This document shows positions 1,259-25,636 of a stretch of DNA of 36,407 nt, in pieces; within the stretch, counting starts at the first letter, position 1; each line of letters opens with the position of its first letter. Origin of the DNA: Candidatus Enterousia sp. (GTDB taxonomy: Bacteria > Pseudomonadota > Alphaproteobacteria > Rs-D84); contig JAZLDK010000071.1 of the NCBI GenBank assembly GCA_045614725.1, positions 1 to 36,407 on the forward strand, in the 5' to 3' direction. The translations under genes and the position numbers were made by a program. The notes beneath the pieces are model-generated. The model did no database searches. It was not told where the DNA came from and saw only the letters and a program-made list of their open reading frames with translations.

Positions 1259-1708
1259 ATGGCGCGCAAGGAATTTGTTCGTTTAATGGAAGAAAATATT
1301 TGGACATTGGATAAAATCGCGGAAAAACTGCGCTTGGATCGTGTTGATACAACCGGATATCCGCGTCAACTGATGTCGATTCTGGTGCGTTTGCACAATG
1401 GTGGGCGCGCGCGCCTTAAAGACATTGCGCGTCGCGAACATGTTTCTGCGCCGAATCTGTGTGCGGCGTTTCGCAAACTGGAACACGACGGGTTGGTGGT
1501 GCGTACGATTGATGAAAACGATCGTCGCAACACTTGGTATGCGGTCAGTGAATCCGGCGCGGAATTGGCTAAGCGTGCAATGGATTTATTCCGTGAAGGT
1601 GTTGAAAAAGTATTTGCCGGTATTTCGCGTGCGGACGAAGCGCGCCTGACGGATGCGTTGCGTACAATGCACGATATTTTAAAGAATGTGGAGTTGAATA
1701 ATGATTAA
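1259..1708 (+). CDS. MarR-family transcriptional regulator
   Basis: 149 aa with a winged-HTH pattern (LKDIARREHVSAPNLCAAFRKLEHDGLVVRTIDENDRRNTWYAVSESG) typical of MarR. Its stop overlaps the start of the next gene (ATGATTAA), so it is the first gene of the efflux operon. Confidence 0.85.
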   Translation: MARKEFVRLMEENIWTLDKIAEKLRLDRVDTTGYPRQLMSILVRLHNGGRARLKDIARREHVSAPNLCAAFRKLEHDGLVVRTIDENDRRNTWYAVSESGAELAKRAMDLFREGVEKVFAGISRADEARLTDALRTMHDILKNVELNND

Positions 1709-3032: not shown

Positions 3033-3033
3033 A

Positions 3034-3633
3034 ATGGAAAAAATACAGCAAACAATTAAAACAAGAAAATTTAAGCACATTATGTTTTGTGCGTTGGCAC
3101 TGATAATTATCGGTTGGGTCGTGTTTCGCTTTGCGGCGGTTGCATCTGAAAATGCGCGCTATGTATTTAATGCATCACGTGTTGCGGCCGATGTTGGTGC
3201 GCCGGTTCAGGTCCTGGAATTATCGCGCTCAGACGGCGTGTTATATGAACCAATTGCGGTGCGGAATAATCGCGCCTATGTCGCCGGTGAAACCGTATCT
3301 AAATTCAAGGCTGGCCAGAAAGTAGGCAACGGTAAAATTGTTTCTGTATCGTCTGATTTGGATTTGGATACAGGCATGTTTGTAATTCGTACGCGTGGTG
3401 TCGCGGATGGTTTGCATTTTGCAGAATTTTCCGCACGTGGTCATTTTGTTCCTGTCTATGCGGTGCATAATGACACGGTTATGGTTGTGCACGACGGTGT
3501 GGCGCATGCGCGTTCCGTGACGGTTGCGCGTCAGGATTCAGACAACGCGTATATCACTTCGGGATTAAATGACGGCGACATTGTTATTTTGTCCAAGGTC
3601 GATGCTGGCAACAAAGTTCAAATCAAGAAATAA
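3034..3633 (+). CDS. Unusually short periplasmic adaptor (membrane-fusion protein)-like subunit (199 aa)
   Basis: It sits between the OMF and RND genes. It has one N-terminal TM helix (IMFCALALIIIGWVVFRF) followed by a beta-rich sequence ending ...VTVARQDSDNAYITSGLNDGDIVILSKVD, which resembles MFP beta-barrel and membrane-proximal regions. No long coiled-coil hairpin is visible. ATG 3034 (RBS AGGTGA) is preferred over the GTG at 3025. Confidence 0.6.
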   Translation: MEKIQQTIKTRKFKHIMFCALALIIIGWVVFRFAAVASENARYVFNASRVAADVGAPVQVLELSRSDGVLYEPIAVRNNRAYVAGETVSKFKAGQKVGNGKIVSVSSDLDLDTGMFVIRTRGVADGLHFAEFSARGHFVPVYAVHNDTVMVVHDGVAHARSVTVARQDSDNAYITSGLNDGDIVILSKVDAGNKVQIKK

Positions 3634-3651
3634 GGCAAGGGGGGATTGGCT

Positions 3652-6600
3652 ATGTTAAAGTTTTTTGTTCGTCGTCCAATTACGACAATTATGTTTGTTT
3701 TATTCTGGGTTGTGTTGGGATTTTATTCGTTCCCAAACATGAATGTGGAACGCACACCCTCGATTGATTTTCCTATGGTGACGGCGACCTTTATATATCC
3801 TGGTGCTGCGCCTGCGGAACTTGAATCCCAGGTAATTAAAAAAGCCGAAGACGCGATGTCTGAAGTTGCCGAATTAAAGTCCATTAAATCATATGTCTAT
3901 GAAAACAGTGGCATGGTTATGGCGGAATTTAATTTGGGTGTAAATGTTAATGATAAATCGACCGAAATTAAGACAAAACTTGATGCGTTGATGTCCGAAT
4001 TCCCCACGGACATGGAACAGCCAATTGTTGAAAAATTAAATCCTTTGCAGGAATCTGTGTTGGATATCGTTTTGCGTGGTGGTGATGCGCGCGAAATGGA
4101 AGAATACGTGGATAATGTTTTATCCAATAAAATCACCGCGATTAATGGTGTGGCCAGTGTATCTGTATTCGGTGGCCGTCAGCGCGCAATTCGCGTTCAG
4201 TTAAATCCTGACCAGATGGCGGCGCGTGGTGTGACCATTATGGATGTTGTTTCCGCCATGGGCAGTCATAACTTAAATGTCCCCGGGGGCAAGATAGAAA
4301 CAACCCAGAATTCATCCAATGTTCGTTTTATTGGTGAATTTGCATCTGTGGAAGAAATTGCCAATTTGCACATGACAACGGTCGAAGGTCAAAACTTTAA
4401 GTTGTCTGATATCGCGACTGTTTCTGATGCTGCGTTGGATATTGAAAACGGTGCGCGCTATAATGGTGAAGATGTTGTTATTGCATCTGTTGTAAAATCA
4501 TCGGACGGTAATGCAATCAAGATTTCAAACACAATTCGCGACCGCATGCCATCATTGACAGCTGATTTGAAATCGCGTTTTCCAAATGCCGAAATGATGA
4601 TAGTGGCGGATTCTTCGACCAGTATATCTGATGAAACAGATGGTACAATTAATGGTATTGTTCTGGGTGTTATATTTACTGTTTTGGTATTGTTGGCTTT
4701 TACACGCAATTGGCGTTCGACCATTATTGCGGGTGTTGTGATTCCTGCATCTTTGATTGCTGGTTTCTTCTTTATGGATTTTTCGAACTTTACGATTAAC
4801 GCGATGACATTGTTGGCATATTCGTCCGCGTTGGGTACATTGGTTTCGAATGCGATTATTCTGATTGAATCAGCATTACAGGAAATGCATGCCGGCAAAA
4901 CACCCGAAGATGCCGCCATTGACGGAACCAAAAAGGTCGCCGTATCTGTATTGGCGGGTGTTGGAACCAATGTTGTGGTGTTCTTGCCTTTGGCGTTTAT
5001 GAGTGGTATCGTCGGTCAATTCATGGTTCAGTTTGGTATGACGGTTGTGTATTTGACATTGCTGTCTTTGTTGTTCTCGTTCACACTGACACCTATGATG
5101 ATTGCCAAGATTTTGCGCCTGACCGGTGTTAAAAAGTCGCGCGCAAAACCGGTAAAAGTATCCACCACGCAACGCGAAGAATCATGGTTGCGTCGTTGGT
5201 TTAATTATCAGGTTGCGCATCCTTGGCGCGTGGTTGGCTTAATGGCGGCGGTGTTCTTGGTATCGACCCAGTTGATGAAATTTGTTGGAAATGAATTTCA
5301 GCCATCAACCGATGCAAACGAAATCACAATTACGGCGCGCGCACCTATGGGGGCGACATATGAAAAGTCCGCCGCAATTGTAAAGCAGATTGAACAGCGT
5401 TTATCGGCATTCCCAGAAATAAAATCAACAACTGTGAAAATTGGTGAACGCGGTCTGCAAAACATTACGGTTGTAATTGAATTGGTTGATGTTTCCGAAC
5501 GCAATATATCGGATAAAATGTTGACCCAGAAAATATTGCCAACACTGGCCGATATTTCCGATGTCGAAATTACCATCCGTGCTGGCGAGGCTCGTTCTGC
5601 CGGATTAACCGCGGACCTGGTGCTGAATGTATTTGGTCCAGATGATGCAAAACGCGAAGCATACGCGGCCCAGATTATTGACATGGCAAACCAGATACCA
5701 GAAGTTCAATCCGCCATTCGTGCCCAGCAGGTTCCGGCCCTTGAAACCCAGTTTGTTCCCGATCAGGAAAAAATGAATTTCTGGGGTGTGCAAAATTCGT
5801 ACGCGGGTGCGACATTGCGTGCCGCCCTGTACGGTAATGATGACTTTAAGTACAAAGAAGCCGGCGAAGAATATCCAATTTTGTTGGAATTTGCGCGCCC
5901 ATTCAAAAACGCATCTTTGTTTGATGTGGTCTATGTAAATTCACAAAAGGGTATGGTTCCACTGTCGTCACTTGGCGCGGTTAAACAGGTTCCTGCAACG
6001 CCTGATATTCGTCGCGAAGATAAAAATCGTTTGACCGAAGTTGATATCAATATTGGTAAATCAACCATGGGTGTTGTTCAGGCAAAAATCCAAAACGAAT
6101 TGGATAAAATGCAGTGGGAAAACGGATACTATGCCAAGTTTGGTGGTTCGTCTGAATACCAGGCCGAAGCTGCCACGGAAATCGGTCGTGCGTTCTTGCT
6201 GGCAACTGTTTTGACATATATGTTGTTGGCTGCGATTATGAATTCTTTGGCGCATCCACTTACGATTGCGACATCTATTTTGACCAGTTTTACAGGCGTG
6301 TTTGCGTTAATGTTCTTGTCGGGCGCGACAATGAATATTGGTGCGATGTTGGCGTTTGTTATGTTGGTTGGATTGGTGGTTAATAACAATATTTTGGTGT
6401 TGGAACCAACGATTAGCCGAATTCGTGATGGCGAATCCGCATCTGACGCACTGTGGACCGAATTGACCGATAAAAAGAACATGGTGCTGATGACATCAAT
6501 CGCGGTTATCGCGGGTATGGTGCCCCAGTTGTGGTCTATTGACGGTATGAAGGTCGCAATGGGTGCGGTTTTGATTGGTGGTATGTTCGCAAGTCTTGTG

Positions 6601-6675
6601 TTTACATTCACACTGACACCTGCGTTGTTCCTGTTAATGGAACGCGCGCGTCAAAAACTGAAACGCAAAAAATAA
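3652..6675 (+). CDS. RND-family efflux transporter permease (AcrB/AcrD/AcrF superfamily)
   Basis: 1007 aa. The N-terminus MLKFFVRRPITTIMF matches the AcrB-type start. The layout is 12 TM helices plus two large periplasmic loops, with a duplicated TM bundle. ATG 3652 (G-rich RBS at 3636-3644) is preferred over the TTG at 3646. Confidence 0.9.
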   Translation: MLKFFVRRPITTIMFVLFWVVLGFYSFPNMNVERTPSIDFPMVTATFIYPGAAPAELESQVIKKAEDAMSEVAELKSIKSYVYENSGMVMAEFNLGVNVNDKSTEIKTKLDALMSEFPTDMEQPIVEKLNPLQESVLDIVLRGGDAREMEEYVDNVLSNKITAINGVASVSVFGGRQRAIRVQLNPDQMAARGVTIMDVVSAMGSHNLNVPGGKIETTQNSSNVRFIGEFASVEEIANLHMTTVEGQNFKLSDIATVSDAALDIENGARYNGEDVVIASVVKSSDGNAIKISNTIRDRMPSLTADLKSRFPNAEMMIVADSSTSISDETDGTINGIVLGVIFTVLVLLAFTRNWRSTIIAGVVIPASLIAGFFFMDFSNFTINAMTLLAYSSALGTLVSNAIILIESALQEMHAGKTPEDAAIDGTKKVAVSVLAGVGTNVVVFLPLAFMSGIVGQFMVQFGMTVVYLTLLSLLFSFTLTPMMIAKILRLTGVKKSRAKPVKVSTTQREESWLRRWFNYQVAHPWRVVGLMAAVFLVSTQLMKFVGNEFQPSTDANEITITARAPMGATYEKSAAIVKQIEQRLSAFPEIKSTTVKIGERGLQNITVVIELVDVSERNISDKMLTQKILPTLADISDVEITIRAGEARSAGLTADLVLNVFGPDDAKREAYAAQIIDMANQIPEVQSAIRAQQVPALETQFVPDQEKMNFWGVQNSYAGATLRAALYGNDDFKYKEAGEEYPILLEFARPFKNASLFDVVYVNSQKGMVPLSSLGAVKQVPATPDIRREDKNRLTEVDINIGKSTMGVVQAKIQNELDKMQWENGYYAKFGGSSEYQAEAATEIGRAFLLATVLTYMLLAAIMNSLAHPLTIATSILTSFTGVFALMFLSGATMNIGAMLAFVMLVGLVVNNNILVLEPTISRIRDGESASDALWTELTDKKNMVLMTSIAVIAGMVPQLWSIDGMKVAMGAVLIGGMFASLVFTFTLTPALFLLMERARQKLKRKK

Positions 6676-9022: not shown

Positions 9023-9337
9023 TTATTTCCCAAATATGAATGAATTATCGCGGCTGATTTCAATAATCACATCAATACTGTCATCATCGGGTGTTTTTTG
9101 ACGTTTTACTTTGCCGCATTTTTCACATTTGTGTGTGATTATAAATTTATCGCCGTCGGGCTGGGCGGCAATTGGTCGCATCATGCCACCGCATGTCGCC
9201 GCGCGGTCGCCGGGATTGTTGTCAACATGTCTTGACCAAAGACACACATGGCAATGATTGGTATATCCATTGCCATGTACAACTGCGCCACAATGGGCGC
9301 AGTTAAAATCTTCAACAGTCTTGGTGAACGATTTCAT
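9023..9337 (-). CDS. RNHCP-domain protein (zinc-ribbon-like, 104 aa)
   Basis: The sequence FNCAHCGAVVHGNGYTNHCHVCLWSRHVD...ATCGGMMRPI...HKCEKCG matches the RNHCP domain pattern (C-x2-C ... [RT]NHC-x2-CLWS-x-H ... C-x2-C). Its start overlaps the gapR stop by 1 nt (TAATG). Confidence 0.75.
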   Translation of the reverse strand: MKSFTKTVEDFNCAHCGAVVHGNGYTNHCHVCLWSRHVDNNPGDRAATCGGMMRPIAAQPDGDKFIITHKCEKCGKVKRQKTPDDDSIDVIIEISRDNSFIFGK

Positions 9338-11103: not shown

Positions 11104-12264
11104 ATGGGAAGAATGTTGGCATTTTTTTTACTATCGATGATTTGCCTGCCACTGTATGCGGCCCAATACCGTGCTGCGCTGGTTGCGGATATGGATACTG
11201 GTCGCGTGCTGTACCAAGAAAAAGCAACTGAATTAAATTATCCCGCCAGTTTGACCAAGATAATGACATTGTATCTGACCTTTGATGCGTTGGATCATGG
11301 GCGATTGGCATTGGATGATTATTTAATTGTGTCACAATCGGCCGCCAATGCTGAACCCGTGAAACTGGGGCTGGCGGCGGGTGCAAAAATTCGTGTCGAA
11401 GATGCAATTAAGGCCGTCGCAGTTTACAGTGCGAATGATGTCGCGCGTGTCTTGGCGGAAAATCTTAAAGGTGGCCAGGAAGAATCCTTTGCGGATTTGA
11501 TGACGCGTGTCGCGCGTGAAATTGGTTTAACAAATACGAATTTCGAGAACTCATCTGGTCTGCCGAACGATGATCATATGTCAACCGCGCGTGATATTGC
11601 TTTGTTGTCCATGGCGGTGTATAAACATTTTCCTCAGTATTGGCATTTCTTTGGGATTAAGTCTTGGACCTATAACGGTAAAACATATACTAATGGGAAC
11701 CGACTGCTAAGTTCGTATAATGGCTGTGATGGTATGAAGACCGGATATACCAAAAAATCGAAATATTCATTGGTCGCAACCGCGCACAGACAGGGGCGGC
11801 ATTTAATTTCGGTTGTCTTGGGTGCGGAAAACAAGGATGTGCGTGCAAATGTTGCGGCGCAGATGTTGACCCGTGGATTTACAATGTTGAATAATGGTGA
11901 TACGCCGATTGCGAAAACAACCTATACCGCGCCGGTTGTGAATTCTTCGGACACGGTCGAAGCGCCAACAACTTTTGCGGGCGCATATAATGCGGCGACC
12001 GCGGCCGCAACACCAAAATACAACAACGCGGTCGCGGCGACACCGTCCGGTGGCGCGGGGGTTCAGTTTGGGGCCTTTTCGTCCCAATCCGCCGCCAACG
12101 CCCAGGTTCAAAATGTAAAAAACAAACTGGGGGTTAATGCGACGATTGAACCAAACGGTTCCGGTATGTATCGTGTGCGCGTACATGGGTTATCGGAATC
12201 CGCGGCCCAGGGACTTAAAAAATCCGCCACGGCAAACGGTATTGACAGTTATGTTTTTCATTAG
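11104..12264 (+). CDS. D-alanyl-D-alanine carboxypeptidase (PBP5/6-like, peptidase S11) with a C-terminal SPOR domain
   Basis: It has a signal peptide. The active-site motifs are SxxK (ASLTKIM), SxN (YSAND) and KTG (MKTGYT). An Ala/Thr/Asn-rich linker leads to a SPOR-like end (GVQFGAFSSQSAANAQVQNVKNKL...MYRVRVHGLSESAAQGLKKSATANGIDSYVF). Confidence 0.85.
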   Translation: MGRMLAFFLLSMICLPLYAAQYRAALVADMDTGRVLYQEKATELNYPASLTKIMTLYLTFDALDHGRLALDDYLIVSQSAANAEPVKLGLAAGAKIRVEDAIKAVAVYSANDVARVLAENLKGGQEESFADLMTRVAREIGLTNTNFENSSGLPNDDHMSTARDIALLSMAVYKHFPQYWHFFGIKSWTYNGKTYTNGNRLLSSYNGCDGMKTGYTKKSKYSLVATAHRQGRHLISVVLGAENKDVRANVAAQMLTRGFTMLNNGDTPIAKTTYTAPVVNSSDTVEAPTTFAGAYNAATAAATPKYNNAVAATPSGGAGVQFGAFSSQSAANAQVQNVKNKLGVNATIEPNGSGMYRVRVHGLSESAAQGLKKSATANGIDSYVFH

Positions 12265-16072: not shown

Positions 16073-17638
16073 ATGGTTCAATTCTTAGATAAAAATTCTG
16101 GGTTTAATCAGTGGAACGCTAACAAGGATGCCACGGCCAAGAAATCTGGCTTTTCGGGTTTCCTTTGGTGGATGGGTATGTTTTTCCTGGCCTGGTGGGC
16201 GGTTGGTTTGGTCATGTCGCCGAAACAGGCACCAATCGCAGCCGACGAAGAAGTTGTGGCACTTGACCTGTCTGGTGTGCCAGCAACAAACATAGACTCG
16301 GATGTGATTGATGCCACGGTCCAGGGCATTCGTATTTCGGATATTCGCCTAAATAATTATCCGACATCCGCTTCGGATTCTGCGCCTGTATCGTTATTGG
16401 GCGCGGATGATAATTACATTGAAATAGGTCTGTTGGGTAATGGTACGGTTGCGCCCAGTGCGACAACCGTATGGAATGGTGACAATGGCACATATACATG
16501 GCGTGCACCCCATGGTGTGACATTTGAACGCGCCATCACCGCGGACGGATATATTATCACGGTCACGGATACAATTAAAAATGCATCCGCCCAGGATTTA
16601 TCTTTTGCCCCATACGCGCATATTGTTCGCACCAACAAGAACGGCGCATCATCGGGTGTAAACACGGGCGCAATAACCTATGCAAATTCCGACCTTGAAA
16701 CGCGTGCATGGCATAAACTGAACAAAAAATCATATGCGTATACCACAACACACGGTTTCACAGGTTTTGCGGACCAGTACTGGCAAACCGTCGTATCAAT
16801 CGACAGTCCCGACCAAACAATCCGTGTCAAGAAAACGGGTGACAACTATACCGCAGATACCGCGGCGGGTGCCGTCACCATTCGCGCGGGTGATACTGGT
16901 TCGATTGTCTCGCACATATTTGCCGGCCCCCGCGACCAGAAAATCTTGAACGCGGCCGAATCCAAGATTGCGGGTATATCGGAATCGATTGATTATGGTT
17001 GGTTCTGGTTCTTGGCGCGTCCGATGTTGTGGCTGTTGAATGCGATTAATTCAATCGTAATGAATTATGGTGTTGCGATTATTATCATGACATTGTTGTT
17101 GCGCCTGTGCATATGGCCACTTACGCGTAAGTCCTATACCAACATGGCAACTATGCAAAAAATGCAACCGGAAATGCAGCGCATTCAAAAACTGTATGCG
17201 AATGACAAGGTTCGCCTTCAAATGGAAATGATGAAACTGTATCAAACGCACAAGACTTCGCCAATGGCGGGATGTCTGCCCATGCTGATTCAGATTCCAA
17301 TATTCTTTGCACTGTACAAGGCGCTGTTGGTATCGGTCCAGATGCGTAATGCGCACTTCTTGTGGATATCAGATTTGTCCGCGATGGATCCATATTTTAT
17401 TCTGCCGATATTGATGGGTGCAACAATGTGGGCCCAGCAATATTTACAGACCGCAAAATCGCGCGTTAAATCCGATGCGAATGACACAATCGCCCAAACG
17501 CAAAAGATGATGCGCTGGATGCCGATTTTGTTTACGATAATGTTTGCATGGATGCCGGCGGGTTTGGTTCTTTACTGGACCGTATCAAATGTGCTGGGGA
17601 TTATTCAAATGCAGATTATCAAAAAGAAGCATAAATAA
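16073..17638 (+). CDS. yidC: Membrane protein insertase YidC
   Basis: An N-terminal TM helix and a large periplasmic domain are followed by the conserved C-terminal 60-kDa insertase core (LLLRLCIWPLTRKSY..MQKMQPEMQRIQKLY..NPMAGCLPMLIQIPIFFALY..PAGLVLYWTVSN). Confidence 0.92.
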   Translation: MVQFLDKNSGFNQWNANKDATAKKSGFSGFLWWMGMFFLAWWAVGLVMSPKQAPIAADEEVVALDLSGVPATNIDSDVIDATVQGIRISDIRLNNYPTSASDSAPVSLLGADDNYIEIGLLGNGTVAPSATTVWNGDNGTYTWRAPHGVTFERAITADGYIITVTDTIKNASAQDLSFAPYAHIVRTNKNGASSGVNTGAITYANSDLETRAWHKLNKKSYAYTTTHGFTGFADQYWQTVVSIDSPDQTIRVKKTGDNYTADTAAGAVTIRAGDTGSIVSHIFAGPRDQKILNAAESKIAGISESIDYGWFWFLARPMLWLLNAINSIVMNYGVAIIIMTLLLRLCIWPLTRKSYTNMATMQKMQPEMQRIQKLYANDKVRLQMEMMKLYQTHKTSPMAGCLPMLIQIPIFFALYKALLVSVQMRNAHFLWISDLSAMDPYFILPILMGATMWAQQYLQTAKSRVKSDANDTIAQTQKMMRWMPILFTIMFAWMPAGLVLYWTVSNVLGIIQMQIIKKKHK

Positions 17639-17644
17639 ATTAAA

Positions 17645-17675
17645 ATCCGCTGAATTATATCAGCGGATTTTTTTA
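17645..17675. terminator. Bidirectional terminator shared by yidC (+) and the convergent small ORF (-)
   Basis: An 8-bp stem (ATCCGCTG / CAGCGGAT) is flanked by an A run on the 5' side and a T run on the 3' side. The stop codon of the minus-strand ORF lies within the hairpin. Confidence 0.8.
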
Positions 17676-17995
17676 TACAACCCAAACGGTGTTTGTATTC
17701 GCACATCACGTATGCCGATTGCGCGCTTGGTCATTTCCACACAGGTGCGCGCCCCACGCGCCGTAAAGTCATGTGCCAGATTGCGCGGCAAATATACAAA
17801 CCGCCACCCATATTGACCAAGTATTTTTATATCGCGCATACTAAGTGGAATTTTTTGAATATTTCCCCGCCGCACAAATTGCAGCATTATCATATTATTG
17901 TTGCAGACGATTATCGGCGCGACATGTTTATATTTTCTGCAAAATAATTTTGGGATAAACCTGCTGGTTTTTCGTGAAAAGGCAATGATAATCAT
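17660..17995 (-). CDS. Hypothetical basic protein (111 aa from ATG 17995; the longer 145-aa form would start at 18097)
   Basis: ATG 17995 is preceded by an RBS (AAAGGA, 7-nt spacing). The longer form would overlap the upstream gene and read through a GC hairpin. I recognise no family. A His (KYKHVAPII) upstream of a Cys (ARTCVEMTKRAIGI) is loosely reminiscent of permuted papain/NlpC-P60-like hydrolases, but that is speculative. Confidence 0.45.
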   Translation of the reverse strand: MIIIAFSRKTSRFIPKLFCRKYKHVAPIIVCNNNMIMLQFVRRGNIQKIPLSMRDIKILGQYGWRFVYLPRNLAHDFTARGARTCVEMTKRAIGIRDVRIQTPFGLYKKIR

Positions 17996-18053
17996 GTGAA
18001 ATCCTTTGTGTTTTTTATTTGCGGGGCAGGGCATGCCCCGCGCCGAATAAAAC

Positions 18054-18401
18054 CTAATCAATCCATCCATGTTTTTTTGCTGCGATATTAATAACATTCA
18101 TTGCATTGTTCCATTGTGCGGCGGCGCGGTTTTCACTCCATATATGCTGATGGGGTGCGCGTCTTTTATCTCCAAATTTTTTCATAATTTCTAATTGTTC
18201 GTCTGTTAATTTTCCGGCCAGATAAAGTTTAGTAATCATTGTTTCCACATCCACCAGTTCGCATGGTCGCCGTGTTGGGTTTGCTCGCATTTGTGTAAAA
18301 CTGTTGCGCACAGATTTAGAATATAAAAACCAGAACCACAATTGTTCTGCGCTTTGAAATTTTTCTGATGCGTTTTCTGTGATGGTATTAAGTTGTGTCA
18401 T
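18054..18401 (-). CDS. Hypothetical small helical protein (115 aa)
   Basis: It has a strong RBS (AAGGAGA, 9 nt before the ATG at 18401). The sequence looks helical and soluble (…SAEQLWFWFLYSK…RRPCELVDVETMITKLYLAGKLTDEQLEIMKKFG…). I recognise no family. Confidence 0.55.
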   Translation of the reverse strand: MTQLNTITENASEKFQSAEQLWFWFLYSKSVRNSFTQMRANPTRRPCELVDVETMITKLYLAGKLTDEQLEIMKKFGDKRRAPHQHIWSENRAAAQWNNAMNVINIAAKKHGWID

Positions 18402-18429
18402 GTTTTCTTTCTCCTTTTTTTATCCGTGT

Positions 18430-18449
18430 TATATATATATATATATATA
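18430..18449. repeat. (TA)10 dinucleotide microsatellite
   Basis: Perfect TATATATATATATATATATA, 29-48 nt upstream of the minus-strand ATG at 18401. Confidence 0.95.
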
Positions 18450-18596
18450 ACAAGAAAAGATTCCTGTGAATCATTACAACCGATGGTTGAAGTTCGAATC
18501 GAAAATCCGATTCAAAATGCGAATTTTTGTTTCGCGTTACGAATCGAAAAATTTATCCATAATCAATTTTTTTCATTTTTTATCCTTAAATAAAAA

Positions 18597-18613
18597 ACGC
18601 GCCATTGGCGCGT
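18597..18613 (-). terminator. Second of two tandem terminators after virB10
   Basis: An ACGCGCC / GGCGCGT stem (loop ATTG) is followed by a T run on the minus strand. Confidence 0.65.
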
Positions 18614-18641
18614 AAAAAATATTTTACATATCTTGATAAAT

Positions 18642-18663
18642 AAACCCGCCATTGGGCGGGTTT
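18642..18663 (-). terminator. Rho-independent terminator immediately after the virB10 stop
   Basis: A 9-bp stem (AAACCCGCC / GGCGGGTTT, loop ATTG) lies 3 nt from the stop codon and is followed by TTTATTTAT on the minus strand. Confidence 0.8.
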
Positions 18664-18665
18664 AT

Positions 18666-21056
18666 TTATATCAGTGGCGGGAAACAATCGCCCCCGGTTG
18701 TCGGGCAACAGTTAAACCCATCTTCACCCATATCGGTATAAACTTCGCCGGCACAGCACCCAAATTGATCGGGTGGATTACCATCTTCACAGGTTAAAAT
18801 GGCCTCTTGTGTGCCGCTGCTGGACGAAGAAGCATACGGATTTTTGACTGTTCCGTCAGCATTATACTGAATCCCCAGTATTTCTTCGTTAAATTGCTGT
18901 TCGTTCATATCATTAATTTTCTGGTCGTATTGTGCCTTTTGGTCGGCCTTATAGGCATCGTATTGCAATTCCTTTTTGGATTGATAGTTTAATGAATCGC
19001 ACCACAATTTAAGTGTCGCGTACGAATACCCACCACATGGATTTAATTCACCGTTCTCGCCTTTTGCGCATGCGGGCTTCACACGCCACAGACCGTCAAC
19101 ATCCTCGCAGAACTGTTCGTTGCCCGCCGCCATCCACGAACGCGCCTGACCAATCCAAGAGTCATCATCTGCCGGGGTTAGTTCACTGTTCTTAACATCC
19201 TTACCCCAATCGCGACGTTTGTCGTTTACTGTGTTGTTGTCGCCTTCTGAAAGTGTGCACTTGTCATTTCCGGTACATGCGACCTGTAAATCAACCGGTG
19301 AATAAACCGTTATGCGCGTTCCGGCCGGAATTGTGAATGGCGGAACCGTGTTATCCATCATATCAACCAACAGTTTCTGTGCCACGCTGTTCCATGCGGT
19401 GATAATTTCATTCTTGGCCAATTCGGACGAGCGGATTTTACCGCTTTGTACGACCGTGTTATTATCCAAATCAATTTGATTTACAAATGCATCCGCCACC
19501 GGATTAATCAGGTTAATCGTCGCCGGCACAAACGCGGTCAGCATCGGCATAACAAATTGTTCCAAATAATCGGTACTGCCACGACCGGGCACACCCACAC
19601 GTCCCTGCGCATCGGCCGAGAATGGGTCTTGTTCTTTGTCAAAATTAAACTCCACACCATTTGGCAAAATAAATTGATACCACTTAATTTCCATGCGACC
19701 AATTGCCTTGTAAGGTCCGGGGATTTTGCCGGTCACATATCCCATCAATAATGTACCCGCCGGAAGAATAACGGTACGGCCATTATCGGAATATACATTC
19801 CTGTCAACCGTTGCACGCACGGGCAGGGACCCCTCGCTTTTCAGCATTTCTATATCCGCACGAACATCCGATACGATTGTTGCAGGAATCGGTTTAAATT
19901 GTCTAAGCACAAAACTGCGATCATATGGTTGTGTTGAAACCACGGCTGTGCCGGTCGTGCCGTATATCACATCCTTGACCTTGGCCGGTTTTACGATGCC
20001 GCCGTTTGATTCAGGGGCAATACTGCTGCCGCGGCTGTTGCTTGGTGTTTCGTTTTGGCGCGCACGATTAACCGATTTTGTTCCTTCTTCTGTGCGCTGT
20101 GCCCATTCAGGTAATCTGCCGCCGGATATTGCAACATATCCGATATGTTCTGCATCACTGCCAATTTTACGGCCACGATTATTAATATCCATAATTAAAC
20201 CAGAATCTGGATTATATATACCCGTCGGATCGTCGCTGCAATCCGTATCAGAAAACGGATGAAAATAGTATGCGCCACCCTTTGGTTTAATCCAGCCACT
20301 TTGATTCCCCGCCAGATTGTATCCCGGGAACGCAAATTCAGAACAAGGTTCGCTTAAGTCAGCGGGCATGCGCTGTGGTTTTTCAAATGGGTCGCCGGCC
20401 GCAATATCATCTACTGCCCTAACAACGGGTTGTGGTTCCGGTTCAGGCTCAGGTTCAGGCTCAGGTTCAGGCTCTGGTTCAGGCTCTGGCTCAGGCTCTG
20501 GTTCAGGCTTTGGCTCTGGGATAACGACAGGTGTTGGTTCGTCGTTGATTTCGGTTGTATATGCACCAATTGCCACAGGAATTGTTGAAATTTCCGACAT
20601 TTCCGGCGCGGCCTGTTCTGCATACCATTCGATTTCAATGGGAATATCGATTGTGTCCATTTCAATCGTTGGCGCAAATTTTACAATTATATCACAACTA
20701 AGATCTTCATTTATAAAGCCGGCACTTTCGCAAGTATTTGTGACTTCAAGGCCATCTACCTCGGGCTTTGATACGGCCTTGATACTGACCGAAGAATTTG
20801 TGGTCACGATAATTTTTTGTTCTTTGGTTTGTCCAACAAGTACCTCGGGCCAATTAATTTCGTCCGGTGTTATTTTTATATTGACCGCTGAATCCTCGCT
20901 TGTTTCTGGCGGCAATTCGACATTTGTCTTTTTTTGCCCCATCAACAGTGTCAGCAAGATAATTACAACAACAAACGCGACACCCAGCAACAACCATCGC
21001 ATATGCTTTGGCATATTATTCAACAGTTCTGATATTTGTTGTTTCAGTTTATTCAT
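18666..21056 (-). CDS. virB10: VirB10/TrbI-family type IV secretion core protein, greatly expanded (796 aa)
   Basis: It has a short cytoplasmic N-terminus, one TM helix (WLLLGVAFVVVIILLTLLM) and a Pro-rich tract (PEPK(PE)12PQP). The TrbI/VirB10 beta-barrel core reads ...PYDRSFVLRQFKPIPATIVSDV..LPVRATVDRNVYSDNGRTVILPAGTLLMGYV..RMEIKWYQFILPNGVEF..ADAQGRVGVPG..FTIPAGTRITVYSPVDL. Extra N-terminal, middle and C-terminal segments are present. ATG 21056 with RBS AAGGTGGGG is preferred over 21077. Confidence 0.85.
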   Translation of the reverse strand: MNKLKQQISELLNNMPKHMRWLLLGVAFVVVIILLTLLMGQKKTNVELPPETSEDSAVNIKITPDEINWPEVLVGQTKEQKIIVTTNSSVSIKAVSKPEVDGLEVTNTCESAGFINEDLSCDIIVKFAPTIEMDTIDIPIEIEWYAEQAAPEMSEISTIPVAIGAYTTEINDEPTPVVIPEPKPEPEPEPEPEPEPEPEPEPEPEPEPQPVVRAVDDIAAGDPFEKPQRMPADLSEPCSEFAFPGYNLAGNQSGWIKPKGGAYYFHPFSDTDCSDDPTGIYNPDSGLIMDINNRGRKIGSDAEHIGYVAISGGRLPEWAQRTEEGTKSVNRARQNETPSNSRGSSIAPESNGGIVKPAKVKDVIYGTTGTAVVSTQPYDRSFVLRQFKPIPATIVSDVRADIEMLKSEGSLPVRATVDRNVYSDNGRTVILPAGTLLMGYVTGKIPGPYKAIGRMEIKWYQFILPNGVEFNFDKEQDPFSADAQGRVGVPGRGSTDYLEQFVMPMLTAFVPATINLINPVADAFVNQIDLDNNTVVQSGKIRSSELAKNEIITAWNSVAQKLLVDMMDNTVPPFTIPAGTRITVYSPVDLQVACTGNDKCTLSEGDNNTVNDKRRDWGKDVKNSELTPADDDSWIGQARSWMAAGNEQFCEDVDGLWRVKPACAKGENGELNPCGGYSYATLKLWCDSLNYQSKKELQYDAYKADQKAQYDQKINDMNEQQFNEEILGIQYNADGTVKNPYASSSSSGTQEAILTCEDGNPPDQFGCCAGEVYTDMGEDGFNCCPTTGGDCFPPLI
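20433..20519 (-). repeat. In-frame hexanucleotide tandem repeat (GGYTCW)n encoding PEPK(PE)12P in VirB10
   Basis: On the + strand the sequence reads GGTTCAGGCTCAGGTTCAGGCTCA... for about 14 units. Translated on the minus strand it gives alternating Pro-Glu. Confidence 0.95.
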
Positions 21057-21098
21057 CCCACGACCCCACCTTAACAAATTGCGTTCTAAATTATGTAA

Positions 21099-22628
21099 TT
21101 ATTGCATTCTTACAACATTGCAACTGGTGCCACTGAACTTTAACAGTTTGTCGCACAAAGTCTGTGCCGTATCGATATCAGTCAATGGCCCAATGCGCAA
21201 ACGATACAGTTGTGCGGTGGATGAAGATGCACCCAAATCACCAACGCCTTGGTCATCAACCGCAAAGAATACTTTGTCTTCATATGGTGTCAGCAATCCC
21301 ACCCCATTATCGCCACTGAACTTGGCGCGCAATTTATTCCAGTAATCTTCCAGTGCAGATACCGTTGTATCGGAACGCAGTTCCACCGCCACACCCAACT
21401 GGTTATTGGTAATCAATGGGATGTTCGTCTGGGGCAAATATGCGCCCGCTGTATTACGCTGTGTTGGCAACATATTTGCAACACTGCCATTGCCCGTCTG
21501 TGGTGCGGTGTATCCCGCCGGCATATAATACCCCGCCCCTGTGTTTGGATTAACGGTTGCGGTATTGCCCATAAACACAGGTGTGCCCGTGTAATTTGTT
21601 CCCATGCTCATTGCGGCCATATCGGCGGTATAGGCAATGTTGTTCAATGATTGGCCCGACAACATGCTTTGTGCTACATTCGCCTCGGCCAGGGCCATAA
21701 CAGATGCAGTGTCTGCAATCAAGAATGGCTTCTCGCGCTTTTTGATACAAACAATTCGTTGTCCGCTGCGCAGAACCATATCGCCAACCGCCTCTACAAT
21801 CAACAGGCGACCATCTTCGCCGTCTGTGCGGAAACCGACCGGAGACTCGCCCCCTTCAACCAGCAGCGACACAACCGGTCTTTGTGTCATGGCGATAACT
21901 TTGTCGCCAAAGTCGATATATGTAAAGATTCTGTCGCGCCATACGCGTTCAGGTGCGATAACATAATCGTCCGGATTTGGAACAAAAATATCCAAATCAA
22001 AACGGAATTCCGATGGGTCAATCTTCATAGATTTAATCCAACCATAATCTTCACCGTCAACCCCAACTGTGTTGGTTGCCGCGGCTGGTGCCTTTTTGAA
22101 TATAGAACCCGAAGCACCCGTTGTTGGCTGGGCACCCATCATAGGCAATGCGCCATTACCATCCAGAACAATATCGACCTGGGAATATGTAATTTCGCTT
22201 GAATTGGATGGTTCCGCCCGCAGATAGAAAACATAACGATTGCCGGATGCGCCCGTCACAATCATATTTGTATCCGAACCCTGATTGCTTGCTTTGGGCG
22301 ATATGAACATTGTTCGTTCGCCCTGAGTTGCATCAATATCAAACTGACCTGTGTCACCAACCTGGGCATCAACAATCTGTTCGCCGTTTGGCAGTGTCAC
22401 CATTGTAATCATGCCGTTGCGTAATTTGATTGGCAAAACCGCGCCCGTTGACCAAGACAGTTGTGCGTATCCAGGCTTGGAACTGCCCATTGCCATGTTT
22501 GCGGTTGGATTGTCCCATGCCTCTTGTATGCCATACGAGGTCCCAGCCTCGGCATATGCGGACACACTAAGTGTTGCCGCCAAACACAGTGTCAGCATAT
22601 TAAACTTAAATAATTTTGCCATTGTCAT
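21099..22628 (-). CDS. virB9: VirB9/TrbG/CagX-family type IV secretion core protein with a C-terminal extension (509 aa)
   Basis: Signal peptide MTMAKLFKFNMLTLCLAATLSVSAYA. The N-terminal VirB9 domain (LPIKLRNGMITMVTLPNGEQIVDAQVGDTGQFDI...MFISPKA...NMIVTGASGNRYVFYLRA) and the C-terminal VirB9 domain (APERVWRDRIFTYIDFGD...VSLLVEGGESPVGFRTDGEDGRLLIVEAVGDMVLRSGQRIVCIKK) align by eye with A. tumefaciens VirB9. About 200 further residues follow. Confidence 0.85.
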   Translation of the reverse strand: MTMAKLFKFNMLTLCLAATLSVSAYAEAGTSYGIQEAWDNPTANMAMGSSKPGYAQLSWSTGAVLPIKLRNGMITMVTLPNGEQIVDAQVGDTGQFDIDATQGERTMFISPKASNQGSDTNMIVTGASGNRYVFYLRAEPSNSSEITYSQVDIVLDGNGALPMMGAQPTTGASGSIFKKAPAAATNTVGVDGEDYGWIKSMKIDPSEFRFDLDIFVPNPDDYVIAPERVWRDRIFTYIDFGDKVIAMTQRPVVSLLVEGGESPVGFRTDGEDGRLLIVEAVGDMVLRSGQRIVCIKKREKPFLIADTASVMALAEANVAQSMLSGQSLNNIAYTADMAAMSMGTNYTGTPVFMGNTATVNPNTGAGYYMPAGYTAPQTGNGSVANMLPTQRNTAGAYLPQTNIPLITNNQLGVAVELRSDTTVSALEDYWNKLRAKFSGDNGVGLLTPYEDKVFFAVDDQGVGDLGASSSTAQLYRLRIGPLTDIDTAQTLCDKLLKFSGTSCNVVRMQ

Positions 22629-22650
22629 ACCAATCCTTCCGTTCTTTATT

Positions 22651-23364
22651 TTATTTGTTTATCACAAAACTATCCAACGGGTCAAGCCCGCCATCGGTAA
22701 TTTTGTATTCTGACACGCGCAACCCCAGTGGGTTTTCGATGCGGTCTGTCCATTTTATCTTTTCGATGTCACCCGATACCAATCTTAATGCAATTGTATA
22801 ATCTTTTGTAGACAAAGGTCCAGCATTATTTGCGCAATTATACCTAAGTTTTATCTGGTACAATTGTTCTTGTTTAAGATACTTTATTGGTTCCGAATTA
22901 ATAAAGTCAACCGTGCATGACAGCGCCAGGTTCTGAACACCATGTCGCCTGATTGAATTTACGGTGCTTGTGCCGGAAAAAGTCTTGTACACATCATCCG
23001 TTGACCAGATTTTTACCAGCCCATCCTTGGCGTTCCACTTTTTGTTCATAATTTTTGATTCAGGTAATATTTCGTTTCTGGCACGAATGTATTCGCGTAT
23101 AAATGCGCGAACATATCGGTCGGCATATGCATCGTCGGTTGGCATTTCGATGATTCGTACCTCTACATTATCTCGCAATTGCGCGGTCAGAAAAAATATC
23201 TGGGGTCTGTTCAGAGGGAACATGTTTTTCAATGTTATTCCCAACGCAAACAACACGACCACCGACATGGCTAAAACAAACACCAGTAATCTTGACAGTA
23301 AAATCGGCGGTTCTATGCGGTTTTTCACGACTTCCTCTCTCTTAATTAAAATGATTGTAGACAA
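22651..23364 (-). CDS. virB8: VirB8-family type IV secretion protein (237 aa, TTG start)
   Basis: A short cytoplasmic N-terminus and one TM helix (LLVFVLAMSVVVLFALGI) precede a periplasmic NTF2-like domain with the family hallmarks FIREYIRARNE and the C-terminal NPLGLRVSEYKI (compare NPLGFQVTSYR in VirB8). The only available start is the TTG at 23364, preceded by GGGGG. Confidence 0.8.
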   Translation of the reverse strand: MSTIILIKREEVVKNRIEPPILLSRLLVFVLAMSVVVLFALGITLKNMFPLNRPQIFFLTAQLRDNVEVRIIEMPTDDAYADRYVRAFIREYIRARNEILPESKIMNKKWNAKDGLVKIWSTDDVYKTFSGTSTVNSIRRHGVQNLALSCTVDFINSEPIKYLKQEQLYQIKLRYNCANNAGPLSTKDYTIALRLVSGDIEKIKWTDRIENPLGLRVSEYKITDGGLDPLDSFVINK

Positions 23365-23435
23365 AAAGCCCCCATGTGCGCAAGTAAAAAAGTTTCAAAA
23401 TACAAAGTGTTTGTGTTGTTGGTTTGAAAATGGTC

Positions 23436-23464
23436 TTGCGTAAAGGGGGAAAAAGTATTATAAT
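23436..23464 (+). promoter_or_regulatory. Sigma70-type promoter (TTGCGT-17-TATAAT) for tRNA-Trp and probably secE-nusG
   Basis: TTGCGT at 23436-23441, a 17-nt spacer, TATAAT at 23459-23464, about 80 nt upstream of the tRNA. Confidence 0.55.
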
Positions 23465-23544
23465 ATTTCCACTTGATTTTTTGTATTCGTATGCTATTCT
23501 GTCGCAGAATACGCATTGGTGTACAAGGTGTTTGGTGGGTTTAC

Positions 23545-23618
23545 AGGGGCATAGTTCAACGGTAGAATATCGGTCTCCAAAACCGCGGATGAGGGTTCGA
23601 TTCCTTCTGCCCCTGCCA
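23545..23618 (+). tRNA. trnW: tRNA-Trp (anticodon CCA), with the 3' CCA encoded
   Basis: 74 nt: AGGGGCA acceptor stem pairing with TGCCCCT, D arm GTTC/GAAT, anticodon loop CTCCAAA, T arm GAGGG-TTCGATT-CCTTC, discriminator G, then CCA. It is very similar to E. coli tRNA-Trp and occupies the conserved position upstream of secE. Confidence 0.92.
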
Positions 23619-23675
23619 GGTTAAAATGCGCGGAAGTCTGCGTGTTGTAGGCGCTTTTACACGCACATAAAATGG

Positions 23676-23864
23676 ATGGTTTTGATGAAGAAAGTACTGG
23701 AATTTTTTAAGTCGGTTCGTCGTGAATGGTTCAAGATTGTATGGCCATCGCGTGACAGTGTTGTTCGTGCGACAATTATGATTCTAGTGTTTTCAGCGGC
23801 GGCGGCACTGTTCTTCTTCGTGGTGGACAGTTTGTTGAACGCTATTGTTGGTTGGATTTTCTAA
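23676..23864 (+). CDS. secE: Preprotein translocase subunit SecE
   Basis: A small single-TM protein with the SecE signature FFKSVRREWFKIVWPSRDSVVRATIMILVF, directly upstream of nusG. The start could equally be the ATG at 23685. Confidence 0.85.
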   Translation: MVLMKKVLEFFKSVRREWFKIVWPSRDSVVRATIMILVFSAAAALFFFVVDSLLNAIVGWIF

Positions 23865-23888
23865 ACAAAACGGGCAAAGGAAGCACAG

Positions 23889-24422
23889 ATGGAAGAAAAA
23901 ATGCAATGGTATGTTGTTAATGTTCATACAAGCTGCGAAGATAAAGTGGCGCGTGGTCTGCGCGAACAGATTGATAAGCGTCGTTTGAATGCGCTGTTTG
24001 GTGAAATTTTGGTTCCAACACGCGAAGTGACCGAGGTTAAGGCCGGCAAACGCGTAAAATCCGAAAAGAAATTCTTTCCTGGCTATATCGTTGTCCAGAT
24101 GGTTATGAATAACGAAACCTTTACATTGGTAAAACAGATTCCCCAGGTTGTTATGTTCCTGGGTGCGCGCAACAAACCAATCGCGGTCAGCGAAGAAGAA
24201 GCGCGTCGCCTGTTGAAACAGGTGGAAGAGGGTGCGGTCGTCATGGACGATGTCGAATACGAAGTTGGACAGGAAGTTCATGTTATCGACGGGCCATTTG
24301 CGGGTTTTAACGGTGTTGCATCCGAAGTTGATAATGTAAAGCAAAAAATGACTGTGACGGTTCTGGTGTTTGGTCGTGAAACCAGCATGGATTTGGAATT
24401 TAGTCAGGTCGAACGCGTATAA
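23889..24422 (+). CDS. nusG: Transcription termination/antitermination factor NusG
   Basis: It has WYVVNVHTSCEDKV (NGN domain), FPGYIVVQM, and a C-terminal KOW motif (VHVIDGPFAGFNGVASEVD). Confidence 0.92.
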   Translation: MEEKMQWYVVNVHTSCEDKVARGLREQIDKRRLNALFGEILVPTREVTEVKAGKRVKSEKKFFPGYIVVQMVMNNETFTLVKQIPQVVMFLGARNKPIAVSEEEARRLLKQVEEGAVVMDDVEYEVGQEVHVIDGPFAGFNGVASEVDNVKQKMTVTVLVFGRETSMDLEFSQVERV

Positions 24423-24525
24423 AGATTTTTGTGGTTTTCTGAAAAATATCATGTAAAATCACAGCAAACCGTGGTAGATACGCCATATCGTACCACGACA
24501 CAAACGAAAAAAAACGGAGTGAAAA

Positions 24526-24957
24526 ATGGCAAAAAAAGAAGTTAAGGGATTGGTCAAATTGGTCGTCCCTGCAAAACAGGCTAATCCTGCGCCTCCTATT
24601 GGTCCGGCGTTGGGTGCTGCTGGTGTAAACATCGCAGAATTCTGCAAACAGTTTAACGATAAAACGGCTGATAAAGAACCAGGAATGCCAATTCCTTGCA
24701 TTATCACTGTTTACACAGACCGCAGTTTCGAATTCATTATGAAATTGCCACCTGTATCGTACTATATCAAAAAAGCATTGAAATTGAAAATCGGTTCCCA
24801 CAAACCAGGTCGCGATTTTGTTGGTACAATTTCTCAGGCTCAACTGAAAGAAATTGCCGAAGCAAAAATGCCAGACTTGAATTGCTCTTCCATTGAATCC
24901 GCTATGAACATTGTCGCGGGTCAGTGTCGTTCTATGGGCGTAAAGGTAGAGGAGTAA
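24526..24957 (+). CDS. rplK: 50S ribosomal protein L11
   Basis: [44 protein letters not shown] is the canonical L11 N-terminus. Confidence 0.95.
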
Positions 24958-24961
24958 TATC

Positions 24962-25636
24962 ATGAAACTGACTAAGAAACAACAGACTTGGAAAAACTTG
25001 GATACTGAAAAAGTATATGCTTTGGATGAAGCAATCGAAACATTGCGCACATATGCATCCAAGAAATTTGATGAAACATTGGAAATCGCTATCCGTTTGG
25101 GTATCGATGTGACCAAGGCCGACCAGAACATTCGTGGTATGCTGTCTTTGCCAAATGGCACGGGTAAATCCGTTCGCGTTGCTGTTTTCACAGTAAATGC
25201 CCAGGACGAAGCCAAGAAAGCGGGTGCCGATGTTGTTGGCGGTGAAGAATTAATCGAAGCGGTTGCGGCGGGCAATATCAACTTTGACCGTGTTATCGCA
25301 ACACCTGACATGATGCCAAAGATGTCCAAAATTGCACGTGTATTGGGTCCTAAGGGCTTGATGCCGAATCCAAAATTGGGCACTGTGACAAACAATGTTG
25401 CAGAAGCGGTTGCCACCGCCAAGGCTGGTCAGATTGAATACCGTGCGGAAAAGAAGGGTATCATCCACGCGGGTATTGGTAAAATGTCATTTGAAACCGC
25501 TAAATTGGTTGAAAATGCAAATGCTTTGATTGATCAGTTAAAGAAAATCAAACCTGCATCTGCCAAGGGTCAGTATATCTTGGGTATCTCGGTTGCTACA
25601 ACCCAGGGCCCAGGTCTGAAAGTAGATGCAAAATAA
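24962..25636 (+). CDS. rplA: 50S ribosomal protein L1
   Basis: FDETLEIAIRLGIDVTKADQNIRGMLSLPNGTGKSVRVAVF and LGPKGLMPNPKLGTVT are canonical L1 blocks. Confidence 0.95.
   Translation: MKLTKKQQTWKNLDTEKVYALDEAIETLRTYASKKFDETLEIAIRLGIDVTKADQNIRGMLSLPNGTGKSVRVAVFTVNAQDEAKKAGADVVGGEELIEAVAAGNINFDRVIATPDMMPKMSKIARVLGPKGLMPNPKLGTVTNNVAEAVATAKAGQIEYRAEKKGIIHAGIGKMSFETAKLVENANALIDQLKKIKPASAKGQYILGISVATTQGPGLKVDAK

Follow-up and report, generated by a model that had tools for sequence, protein, structure and literature searches.

A SPOR-like domain at the C-terminus of a conserved VirB9 homologue from Candidatus Enterousia

For VirB-type machines, little is understood of how type IV secretion systems (T4SSs) are fixed in the peptidoglycan (PG) and positioned relative to it. 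The outer-membrane core subunit VirB9 forms a ring with 14-fold symmetry in the type IVA cores solved so far, and the canonical VirB9, TraO and TrwF proteins (pKM101, R388, Xanthomonas) are about 250–300 amino acids (aa) long and end after their C-terminal domain. In another trans-envelope machine, the outer-membrane channel subunit, the secretin PilQ, is fused to AMIN domains that bind the cell wall. The known wall-binding parts of T4SSs are accessory lipoproteins of the distant Dot/Icm system. Here, we describe a VirB9/CagX homologue of 509 aa, encoded by the open reading frame (ORF) 21099–22628 on the minus strand of a 36,407-nucleotide stretch of DNA from Candidatus Enterousia sp. (GenBank assembly GCA_045614725.1, contig JAZLDK010000071.1, positions 1–36,407; the entire stretch is hereafter the window). 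This protein continues for 212 residues beyond the VirB9 core and ends in a SPOR-like domain.

The closest analogues are DotK and Dis1 of Legionella, whose OmpA-like PG-binding domains sit in the periphery of the Dot/Icm outer-membrane core (PMC9302130). Both resemble the protein described here in bringing a PG-binding-type module to this part of a T4SS, but they are separate lipoproteins of a type IVB system with an OmpA_C-like fold, whereas in the window a SPOR-like fold is covalently joined to VirB9. The AMIN domains of PilQ differ in fold, are N-terminal and belong to a different machine, the type IV pilus. The N0 extension of Xanthomonas VirB7 (6gyb, the structure that ranks first for the VirB9 part) is also an extra small α/β domain decorating the outer-membrane core, but it belongs to VirB7 rather than VirB9, and with its N0 fold it builds a ring of protein and does not bind the wall. 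SPOR domains (PF05036) such as those of RlpA, FtsN, DamX and DedD share with the VirB9 tail a β-α-β-β-α-β fold of ~75–100 aa, a position at the extreme C-terminus after a low-complexity linker and a basic R-x-R motif on β3; those domains are carried by division or wall enzymes, while the domain described here is carried by a secretion-system subunit.

Identity and extension of the VirB9 homologue

The product of the ORF is the VirB9 subunit of an outer-membrane core of the VirB/VirD4 type (type IVA), and the VirB9 assignment is secure. Residues 56–297 match Pfam CagX (PF03524) with an E-value of 1.2e-23 and 84.4 bits against a cut-off of 34.2. Because this match stops at residue 297, the VirB9 core ends at ...GQRIVCIKK, where a first-pass annotation made from the sequence alone had placed it. 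When a full-length AlphaFold2 (AF2) model was compared with the PDB using Foldseek, Xanthomonas VirB9 was retrieved (6gyb_B, E = 4.7e-11), together with 8rt6_B, TrwF (7o3t_B), DotH (7muc) and CagX (6x6j). By sequence, a profile of the family matched 6gyb only among the solved VirB9s (E = 0.009). Because the protein does not reach the NCBIfam equivalog cut-offs for VirB9 and TrbG (56 versus 218 bits), it represents a divergent subfamily. Its sequence similarity to solved VirB9s is very low. It adds 212 residues to the canonical protein and shares with canonical VirB9s the signal peptide, the N- and C-terminal β-sandwich domains and the virB8-virB9-virB10 gene order.

More specifically, the protein begins with a signal peptide (residues 1–26; 22551..22628, minus strand; ...SAYA/EAG), read from the sequence as a hydrophobic core and an AYA-E site without a lipobox. 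A cryptic lipobox at the invariant Cys15 is ruled out, as the residue at −1 is Leu, Phe or Ile and the cysteine lies within the hydrophobic core of a signal peptide of the signal peptidase I type. The N-terminal β-sandwich domain (residues ~27–155; 22164..22550, minus strand) has Pfam CagX and TraK_N matches, is modelled with a predicted local distance difference test (pLDDT) score of ~80 and matches the N-terminal domains of TrwF/VirB9 (7o3t_B and 8rt6_v) in Foldseek with a TM(target) of 0.76–0.79. A variable inter-domain stretch and the VirB9 C-terminal (O-layer) domain follow (residues ~156–297; 21738..22163, minus strand). The full-length model is poor for residues 158–401 (pLDDT <50), which correspond to the C-terminal domain and the linker behind it. 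Among Enterousia relatives, residues 191–297 are 98.8% identical, the N-terminal domain is 79% identical and the signal peptide merely 42%.

The first-pass annotation had described a tail of about 210 residues (21102–21728, corresponding to residues 301–509), and the extension indeed comprises 212 residues, divided into a conserved segment, a linker and a folded domain. The core is directly followed by a near-invariant segment, REKPFLIADTASVMALAEANVAQSMLSGQSLNNIAY (residues 298–335; 21624..21737, minus strand), in which AF2 places a low-confidence helix at 308–323. In an alignment of 23 relatives that share 76–90% identity overall, this segment is 97% identical, a conservation equal to that of the VirB9 C-terminal domain. 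It is confined to the Enterousia-proximal group, which is also the group without an adjacent VirB7-like gene. Residues 336–405 (21414..21623, minus strand) form a flexible, variable, low-complexity linker rich in A/T/G/N/M/P (AF2 pLDDT <40), and its length ranges from ~70 to ~200 aa across wider relatives. Thus, the low-complexity linker proposed at first holds for residues 336–405, but the near-invariant segment in front of it had not been singled out. The last part, residues 406–509 (21102..21413, minus strand), is the SPOR-like C-terminal domain, recognised by Pfam SPOR, AF2, Foldseek and hhalign; it is 74% identical within the clade.

This architecture is widely distributed. All 120 listed close homologues are 500–524 aa long with full query coverage and carry the motifs GVA[VI]EL and YRLR[IVL]GP as well as a C-terminal Cys pair. 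A scan of one genome per species found a relative in at least 589 species-level genomes, and the best 80 were examined as loci; all 80 encode a full-length protein and belong to Candidatus Enterousia or gut Alphaproteobacteria, including a closed chromosome of 958,618 bp (OZ007020.1). Overall, the architecture is present in well over 2000 protein clusters at 90% identity, and given these clusters and genomes it is not rare. Related versions occur in a second large gut alphaproteobacterial clade (metagenome-assembled genomes), hereafter the sister clade, which comprises at least 1022 such clusters. An exhaustive search of representatives at 50% identity returned 473 related VirB9s; a recognisable tail homologue is found at the extreme C-terminus of 22 representatives (37–72% identical, 463–621 aa). 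When the tail alone served as the query of a word-indexed homologue search, all matches were contig-end fragments from the clade of the query and gave no view of other architectures.

Because the frame is continuous and the full length is kept in 120 of 120 listed homologues and at 80 genome loci, a frameshift or assembly join is excluded. The idea that such an artefact joined virB9 to a separate SPOR gene is also refuted by the same architecture in many independent assemblies and in a second clade, and retains practically no probability.

Precomputed database tags label a minority of these proteins as CagX+SPOR or 'SPOR domain-containing protein, partial'; the fusion is visible to annotation pipelines and apparently unstudied. 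Full-text literature searches found no description of a VirB9 or T4SS with a SPOR tail, or of a T4SS in Rs-D84, consistent with the initial impression that this architecture is undescribed. Candidatus Enterousia (order Rs-D84) comprises gut bacteria with genomes below ~1 Mb that lack the tricarboxylic acid cycle and respiration (PMC12306168). The strongly conserved virB8-9-10 operon that it keeps, or any T4SS, is not mentioned in that genome paper (PMC12306168).

SPOR relationship and ligand-binding residues of the tail

Membership of the tail domain in the SPOR superfamily, which had been proposed for the final ~100 aa, is well supported, since profile scores and the predicted fold agree. Pfam SPOR scores 21.4 bits on the whole window protein (gathering cut-off 21), where it covers residues 468–507 and profile positions 37–76 only, that is the β3-α2-β4 half, and 24.1–26.5 bits on the tail alone. 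The match is marginal in the window protein and clear in relatives: at E ≤ 0.01, the profile matches 18 of the 23 diverse relatives that carry a tail (best E = 5.8e-7) and 76 of 85 sister-clade members (best E = 2.7e-6), and some relatives are matched over profile positions 4–76 with 30.8 bits.

The predicted structure points in the same direction. Modelled alone, the tail adopts a β-α-β-β-α-β arrangement with an inserted loop (pLDDT 70.7, predicted template modelling score 0.61), and the full-length run, based on a different alignment, yields the same elements with a pLDDT of about 75–84. The top three PDB matches of the tail model in Foldseek are all SPOR domains, namely RlpA (6i09 and 6i05; E = 3.5e-3 and 6.4e-3, probability 1.0, TM(target) 0.69–0.70) and DedD (6ztg); only generic ferredoxin-like folds with E > 0.1 rank below. 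RlpA SPOR is retrieved again with the full-length model and is the best match for the tail domain with both models (TM(target) 0.69–0.71 over the two). The predicted elements are β1 (412–420, GVAVELRSD, containing Glu416), α1 (423–436), β2 (453–458), a loop (459–473), β3 (474–482, LYRLRIGP, containing Arg476 and Arg478), α2 (485–499, containing Cys492) and β4 (504–508), preceded by Cys503. Between α1 and β3, the tail differs from RlpA, FtsN, DamX and DedD by a short helix and a loop of 15 additional residues.

Cys492 on α2 and Cys503 at β4 are invariant in every clade, 10–13 residues apart, and do not occupy the positions of the FtsN pair C252–C312. Because the pair is invariant and the domain would be periplasmic, a disulfide bond is suggested. 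The same signature extends to more distant proteins: among 42 further extended VirB9s, a C-x(9-12)-C motif lies 2–9 residues from the C-terminus in 29, while Pfam SPOR matches none of the 42. A profile built from 24 of these aligns with the tail family over 84 columns in hhalign (probability 98.3%, E = 1.4e-14). This distant extended group includes cultured Microvirga species.

A canonical SPOR domain for comparison is encoded in the same window, as the first-pass annotation had noted. The DD-carboxypeptidase gene (Peptidase_S11; 11104–12264, plus strand) carries it at the C-terminus (12046..12255, plus strand; VQFGAF...YRVRV) with a Pfam SPOR score of 38.6–42.5 bits. Agrobacterium DacA (Atu1505) has a SPOR domain as well (PMC10838918).

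In SPOR domains, binding of denuded glycan depends on a highly conserved β1 Gln (RlpA Q270, FtsN Q251; position 8 of the profile hidden Markov model), on position 12, where Phe is preferred, on basic residues that form a patch (RlpA R302/R309/R311; FtsN R285) and on backbone contacts (PMC6895207, Alcorlo et al.). We set the residue register using the Pfam SPOR model as a ruler and checked it on the DD-carboxypeptidase of the window, in which V-Q-F-G-A-F places Gln and Phe at positions 8 and 12, respectively. In the VirB9 tails, the corresponding residues are V-E-L-R-S-D (window) and I-E-L-G-T-D (sister clade), so that position 8 is Glu and position 12 is Asp. The tail had been read as typical of alphaproteobacterial SPOR domains, but it is not a typical one: Glu replaces Gln, and the position-12 aromatic is lost, with Asp or Ser in its place. 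The basic β3 pair Arg476/Arg478 is kept and equivalent to RlpA R309/R311 (compared with PMC6895207). Arg478 does not vary in alignments of diverse relatives with a tail, nor in the motif counts of both clades, and Arg476 is replaced by His in most sister-clade proteins.

Related secretion systems and the role of the tail

In standard systems, VirB9 is stabilised by the lipoprotein VirB7; the first-pass annotation had noted the lack of a virB7 gene, and the tail could be taken to compensate for it. The gene is indeed missing: no small lipoprotein (virB7-like) ORF was found anywhere in the 36-kb window, and no VirB7-like ORF within 10–15 kb in the window or at the 80 Enterousia-like loci. This idea nevertheless does not generalise. 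Two sister-clade loci (L082 and L084) and the locus on the Microvirga sp. VF16 plasmid pMVF16-3 (L081) encode VirB4, a VirB7-like lipoprotein, VirB8, a tailed VirB9, VirB10 and VirB11, and the Microvirga locus also encodes VirB2, VirB3, VirD4 and a relaxase. The gene order on pMVF16-3, a complete conjugative-type cluster, is a MobA/MobL relaxase, VirB2, VirB3, an 816-aa protein at the VirB4 position, and then VirB8, VirB9 (550 aa; WP_203447098.1), VirB10, a VirB11-type ATPase and a VirD4-type coupling protein. In the sister clade, VirB4 is followed by four unassigned proteins, VirB8, a 62-aa lipoprotein, a second VirB8, the tailed VirB9, a 1305–1355-aa beta-flower/RHS-repeat protein, a giant VirB10 (1657–1746 aa) and VirB11.

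At the equivalent position in Microvirga, a 58-aa protein (LSAC...SPCAC; tblastn E = 6e-5) is homologous to the 62-aa lipoprotein, whose lipobox is LLSAC and whose motif is SPCAC. The 58–62-aa proteins are annotated as hypothetical, share a lipobox L[LS]AC and are encoded directly upstream of virB8 (L082 9050–9238, L084 9053–9241, L081 13942–14118); by size, lipobox and position they are VirB7-like. Because both the sister clade and Microvirga combine such a lipoprotein with the tail, VirB7 is not generally replaced by the tail. The sister-clade loci also show that the protein encoded between virB9 and virB10 (L082 11641–15558, L084 11671–15738) contains beta-flower, DUF3659 and RHS-type repeats, and that the giant VirB10 carries beta-flower repeats too.

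We propose that the tail acts multivalently to tether the outer-membrane core to the cell wall or to position it there. This is the best-supported function, with DotK and Dis1 as a precedent, and we give this reading a probability of roughly 55%. VirB9 would be exported by Sec, and its C-terminal core domain would lie under the outer membrane in a multi-copy ring. The tail domain would be periplasmic, as the signal peptide and the Cys pair suggest, with as many copies as there are VirB9 subunits in the ring. Each copy would thus dangle one SPOR-like module into the periplasm on a tether of 70–110 residues, presumably long enough to reach the sacculus. By avidity, such a crown of weak binders could hold the core on the PG sacculus or at the edge of the opening that is made for the machine, and might also bias the site at which the machine is installed. 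At least in related systems, the tail would act beside a VirB7-type lipoprotein rather than instead of it.

Several observations weigh against a wall tether of this kind. Neither VirB2, VirB3, VirB4, VirB6, VirB11 nor VirD4 was found within 10–15 kb in the window or at the 80 Enterousia-like loci; the Enterousia core operon may be encoded apart from the other components of the system or may stand alone. The Foldseek E-values are modest (3.5e-3) and the pLDDT of the tail is ~71–80. Tail profiles searched against PDB sequences retrieved no SPOR structure, just chance matches such as antibody chains, and no BLASTP match was found between the tail and the canonical SPOR domain encoded in the window. 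Missing sequence-level matches to SPOR structures are expected, since pairwise identity within the SPOR family is below 20% (PMC6895207). The ligand-binding residues are a further difficulty. Position 8 is Glu (Glu416 in the window) in 120 of 120 Enterousia-type and 119 of 119 sister-clade proteins, that is 239 of 239, and among diverse representatives it is Gln in one only and Asp in one only. The position-12 Phe (RlpA F274) is lost, with Asp420 in the ELRSD of the window and D/G/N/A in the sister clade (e.g. ELGTD, ELGQG, ELGSN and ELGTA). The FtsN substitution Q251E is reported to lower both denuded-glycan binding and septal localisation (bioRxiv 10.1101/2024.05.13.594014). Because an invariant Glu replaces Gln and this very change weakens denuded-glycan binding in FtsN, PG binding cannot be assumed; the Glu argues against classical denuded-glycan binding. 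Its strict conservation suggests, on the other hand, that position 8 still matters, for a different ligand or for a partner.

The same residues can be read as the mark of a SPOR fold that has lost glycan binding and acts as a protein-protein module. It could, for example, build an additional ring in the periplasm around the core, as the N0 domain of Xanthomonas VirB7 does, or serve as a docking site for VirB10, VirB8 or a hydrolase. The invariant Glu at the key ligand position, the lost aromatic and the weakened glycan binding of FtsN Q251E would all suit such a module, and so would the distant VirB9 tails that escape Pfam SPOR (0 of 42) yet keep the fold-defining Cys pair. Retention of the β3 Arg pair that matches the RlpA basic patch speaks for the wall instead, and a long disordered tether fits a distant extended target better than a fixed ring; we consider such a module doubtful. 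Homology to SPOR domains, whose septal-targeting role is known (PMC6895207), could also mean that the tail is mainly a localisation signal, which, like the SPOR domains of division proteins or the AMIN domains of PilQ, recruits VirB9 to septal PG so that the machine is deposited at new poles. The genome keeps a canonical SPOR protein, so denuded septal glycan is presumably present in the organism, but the Glu change is the very one reported to reduce septal localisation of the FtsN SPOR domain, which makes this role quite unlikely.

A Glu-type SPOR domain might rather recognise a different wall feature, such as N-deacetylated sugars or the chain ends left by lytic transglycosylases at the hole of the T4SS. 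In the RlpA complex, the Gln is a hydrogen-bond donor to the lactyl carboxylate of MurNAc and to the N-acetyl group of GlcNAc, and in simulations RlpA loses N-deacetylated glycan because this Gln contact is gone (PMC6895207); with a carboxylate at position 8, pairing with the free amine of a sugar would be conceivable. In some Alphaproteobacteria, the anhydroMurNAc ends of the chains are deacetylated (PMC10838918), and PG deacetylation affects the localisation of Dot/Icm in Legionella, according to work cited there (PMC10838918). This explanation is purely inferential, with no deacetylase found in the window, and we rate it as a long shot.

Returning to the wall tether as the preferred reading, its ligand is probably a different or modified cell-wall feature and not plain denuded glycan, judging from the residues at positions 8 and 12. 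In a more speculative variant, the Glu-type domain may read N-deacetylated or lytic-transglycosylase-cut glycan ends and thereby couple core assembly to a remodelled patch of wall, and the wall-tethered VirB8/9/10 core of Enterousia might be a stand-alone, non-classical envelope-spanning structure that does not work by ATPase-driven secretion. Taken jointly, a Glu-type SPOR branch with a new ligand specificity and a related stand-alone VirB8/9/10 core in Enterousia seem unlikely.

If the tether is real, a wall-binding-type domain borne by VirB9 would provide up to 14 tethers per core complex. The domain is conserved in thousands of sequences from abundant, uncultured gut Alphaproteobacteria with tiny genomes, and in divergent form in cultured Microvirga, which offers a testable handle on anchoring and placement. 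The invariant Gln-to-Glu change furthermore represents a natural experiment on SPOR ligand specificity: either the classical ligand has been lost or a new one has been gained, and both outcomes would be informative.

Genomic setting and other features of the window

The virB9 gene belongs to a tightly spaced minus-strand virB8-virB9-virB10 operon, whose order is the same in the 80 related loci. Directly upstream, virB8 (22651..23364, minus strand) encodes 237 aa with a Pfam VirB8 match (E = 2.3e-9); directly downstream, virB10 (18666..21077, minus strand) encodes 803 aa matching Pfam TrbI (E = 3e-17) and NCBIfam VirB10. The operon (region 17600–25500 of the window) is located between yidC and tRNA-Trp/secE/nusG, as it is in the 80 Enterousia-like genomes. 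This setting is chromosomal, with yidC, lspA, a Kef-type exchanger gene, ksgA, recR and the genes for the DD-carboxypeptidase and pyruvate kinase on one side, and tRNA-Trp, nusG, ribosomal protein genes, rpoB and rpoC on the other.

VirB10 itself comprises an N-terminal transmembrane helix, an Ig-like region (weak Cep192_D4/CFAP74 matches), a (PE)n repeat at about residues 180–217, a TrbI domain at 397–593 and a C-terminal extension of ~200 aa with 12 cysteines and no family match. Downstream of virB10, two overlapping ORFs of 145 and 115 aa (17660–18401, minus strand) have no Pfam or NCBIfam match.

A membrane-fusion adaptor gene is normally expected between genes for an outer-membrane efflux protein and an RND pump. 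At this place, between a TolC-like OEP gene (1701–3032) and an AcrB-type RND pump gene (3646–6675), the window has a 202-aa ORF (3025–3633, plus strand) with no Pfam match. The first 1000 nucleotides (1–1000) have a GC content of 0.34, compared with about 0.45 elsewhere, and contain a 187-aa ORF (266–829) without a family match. A small RNHCP-domain protein is encoded at 9023–9337 on the minus strand, opposite to its neighbours.

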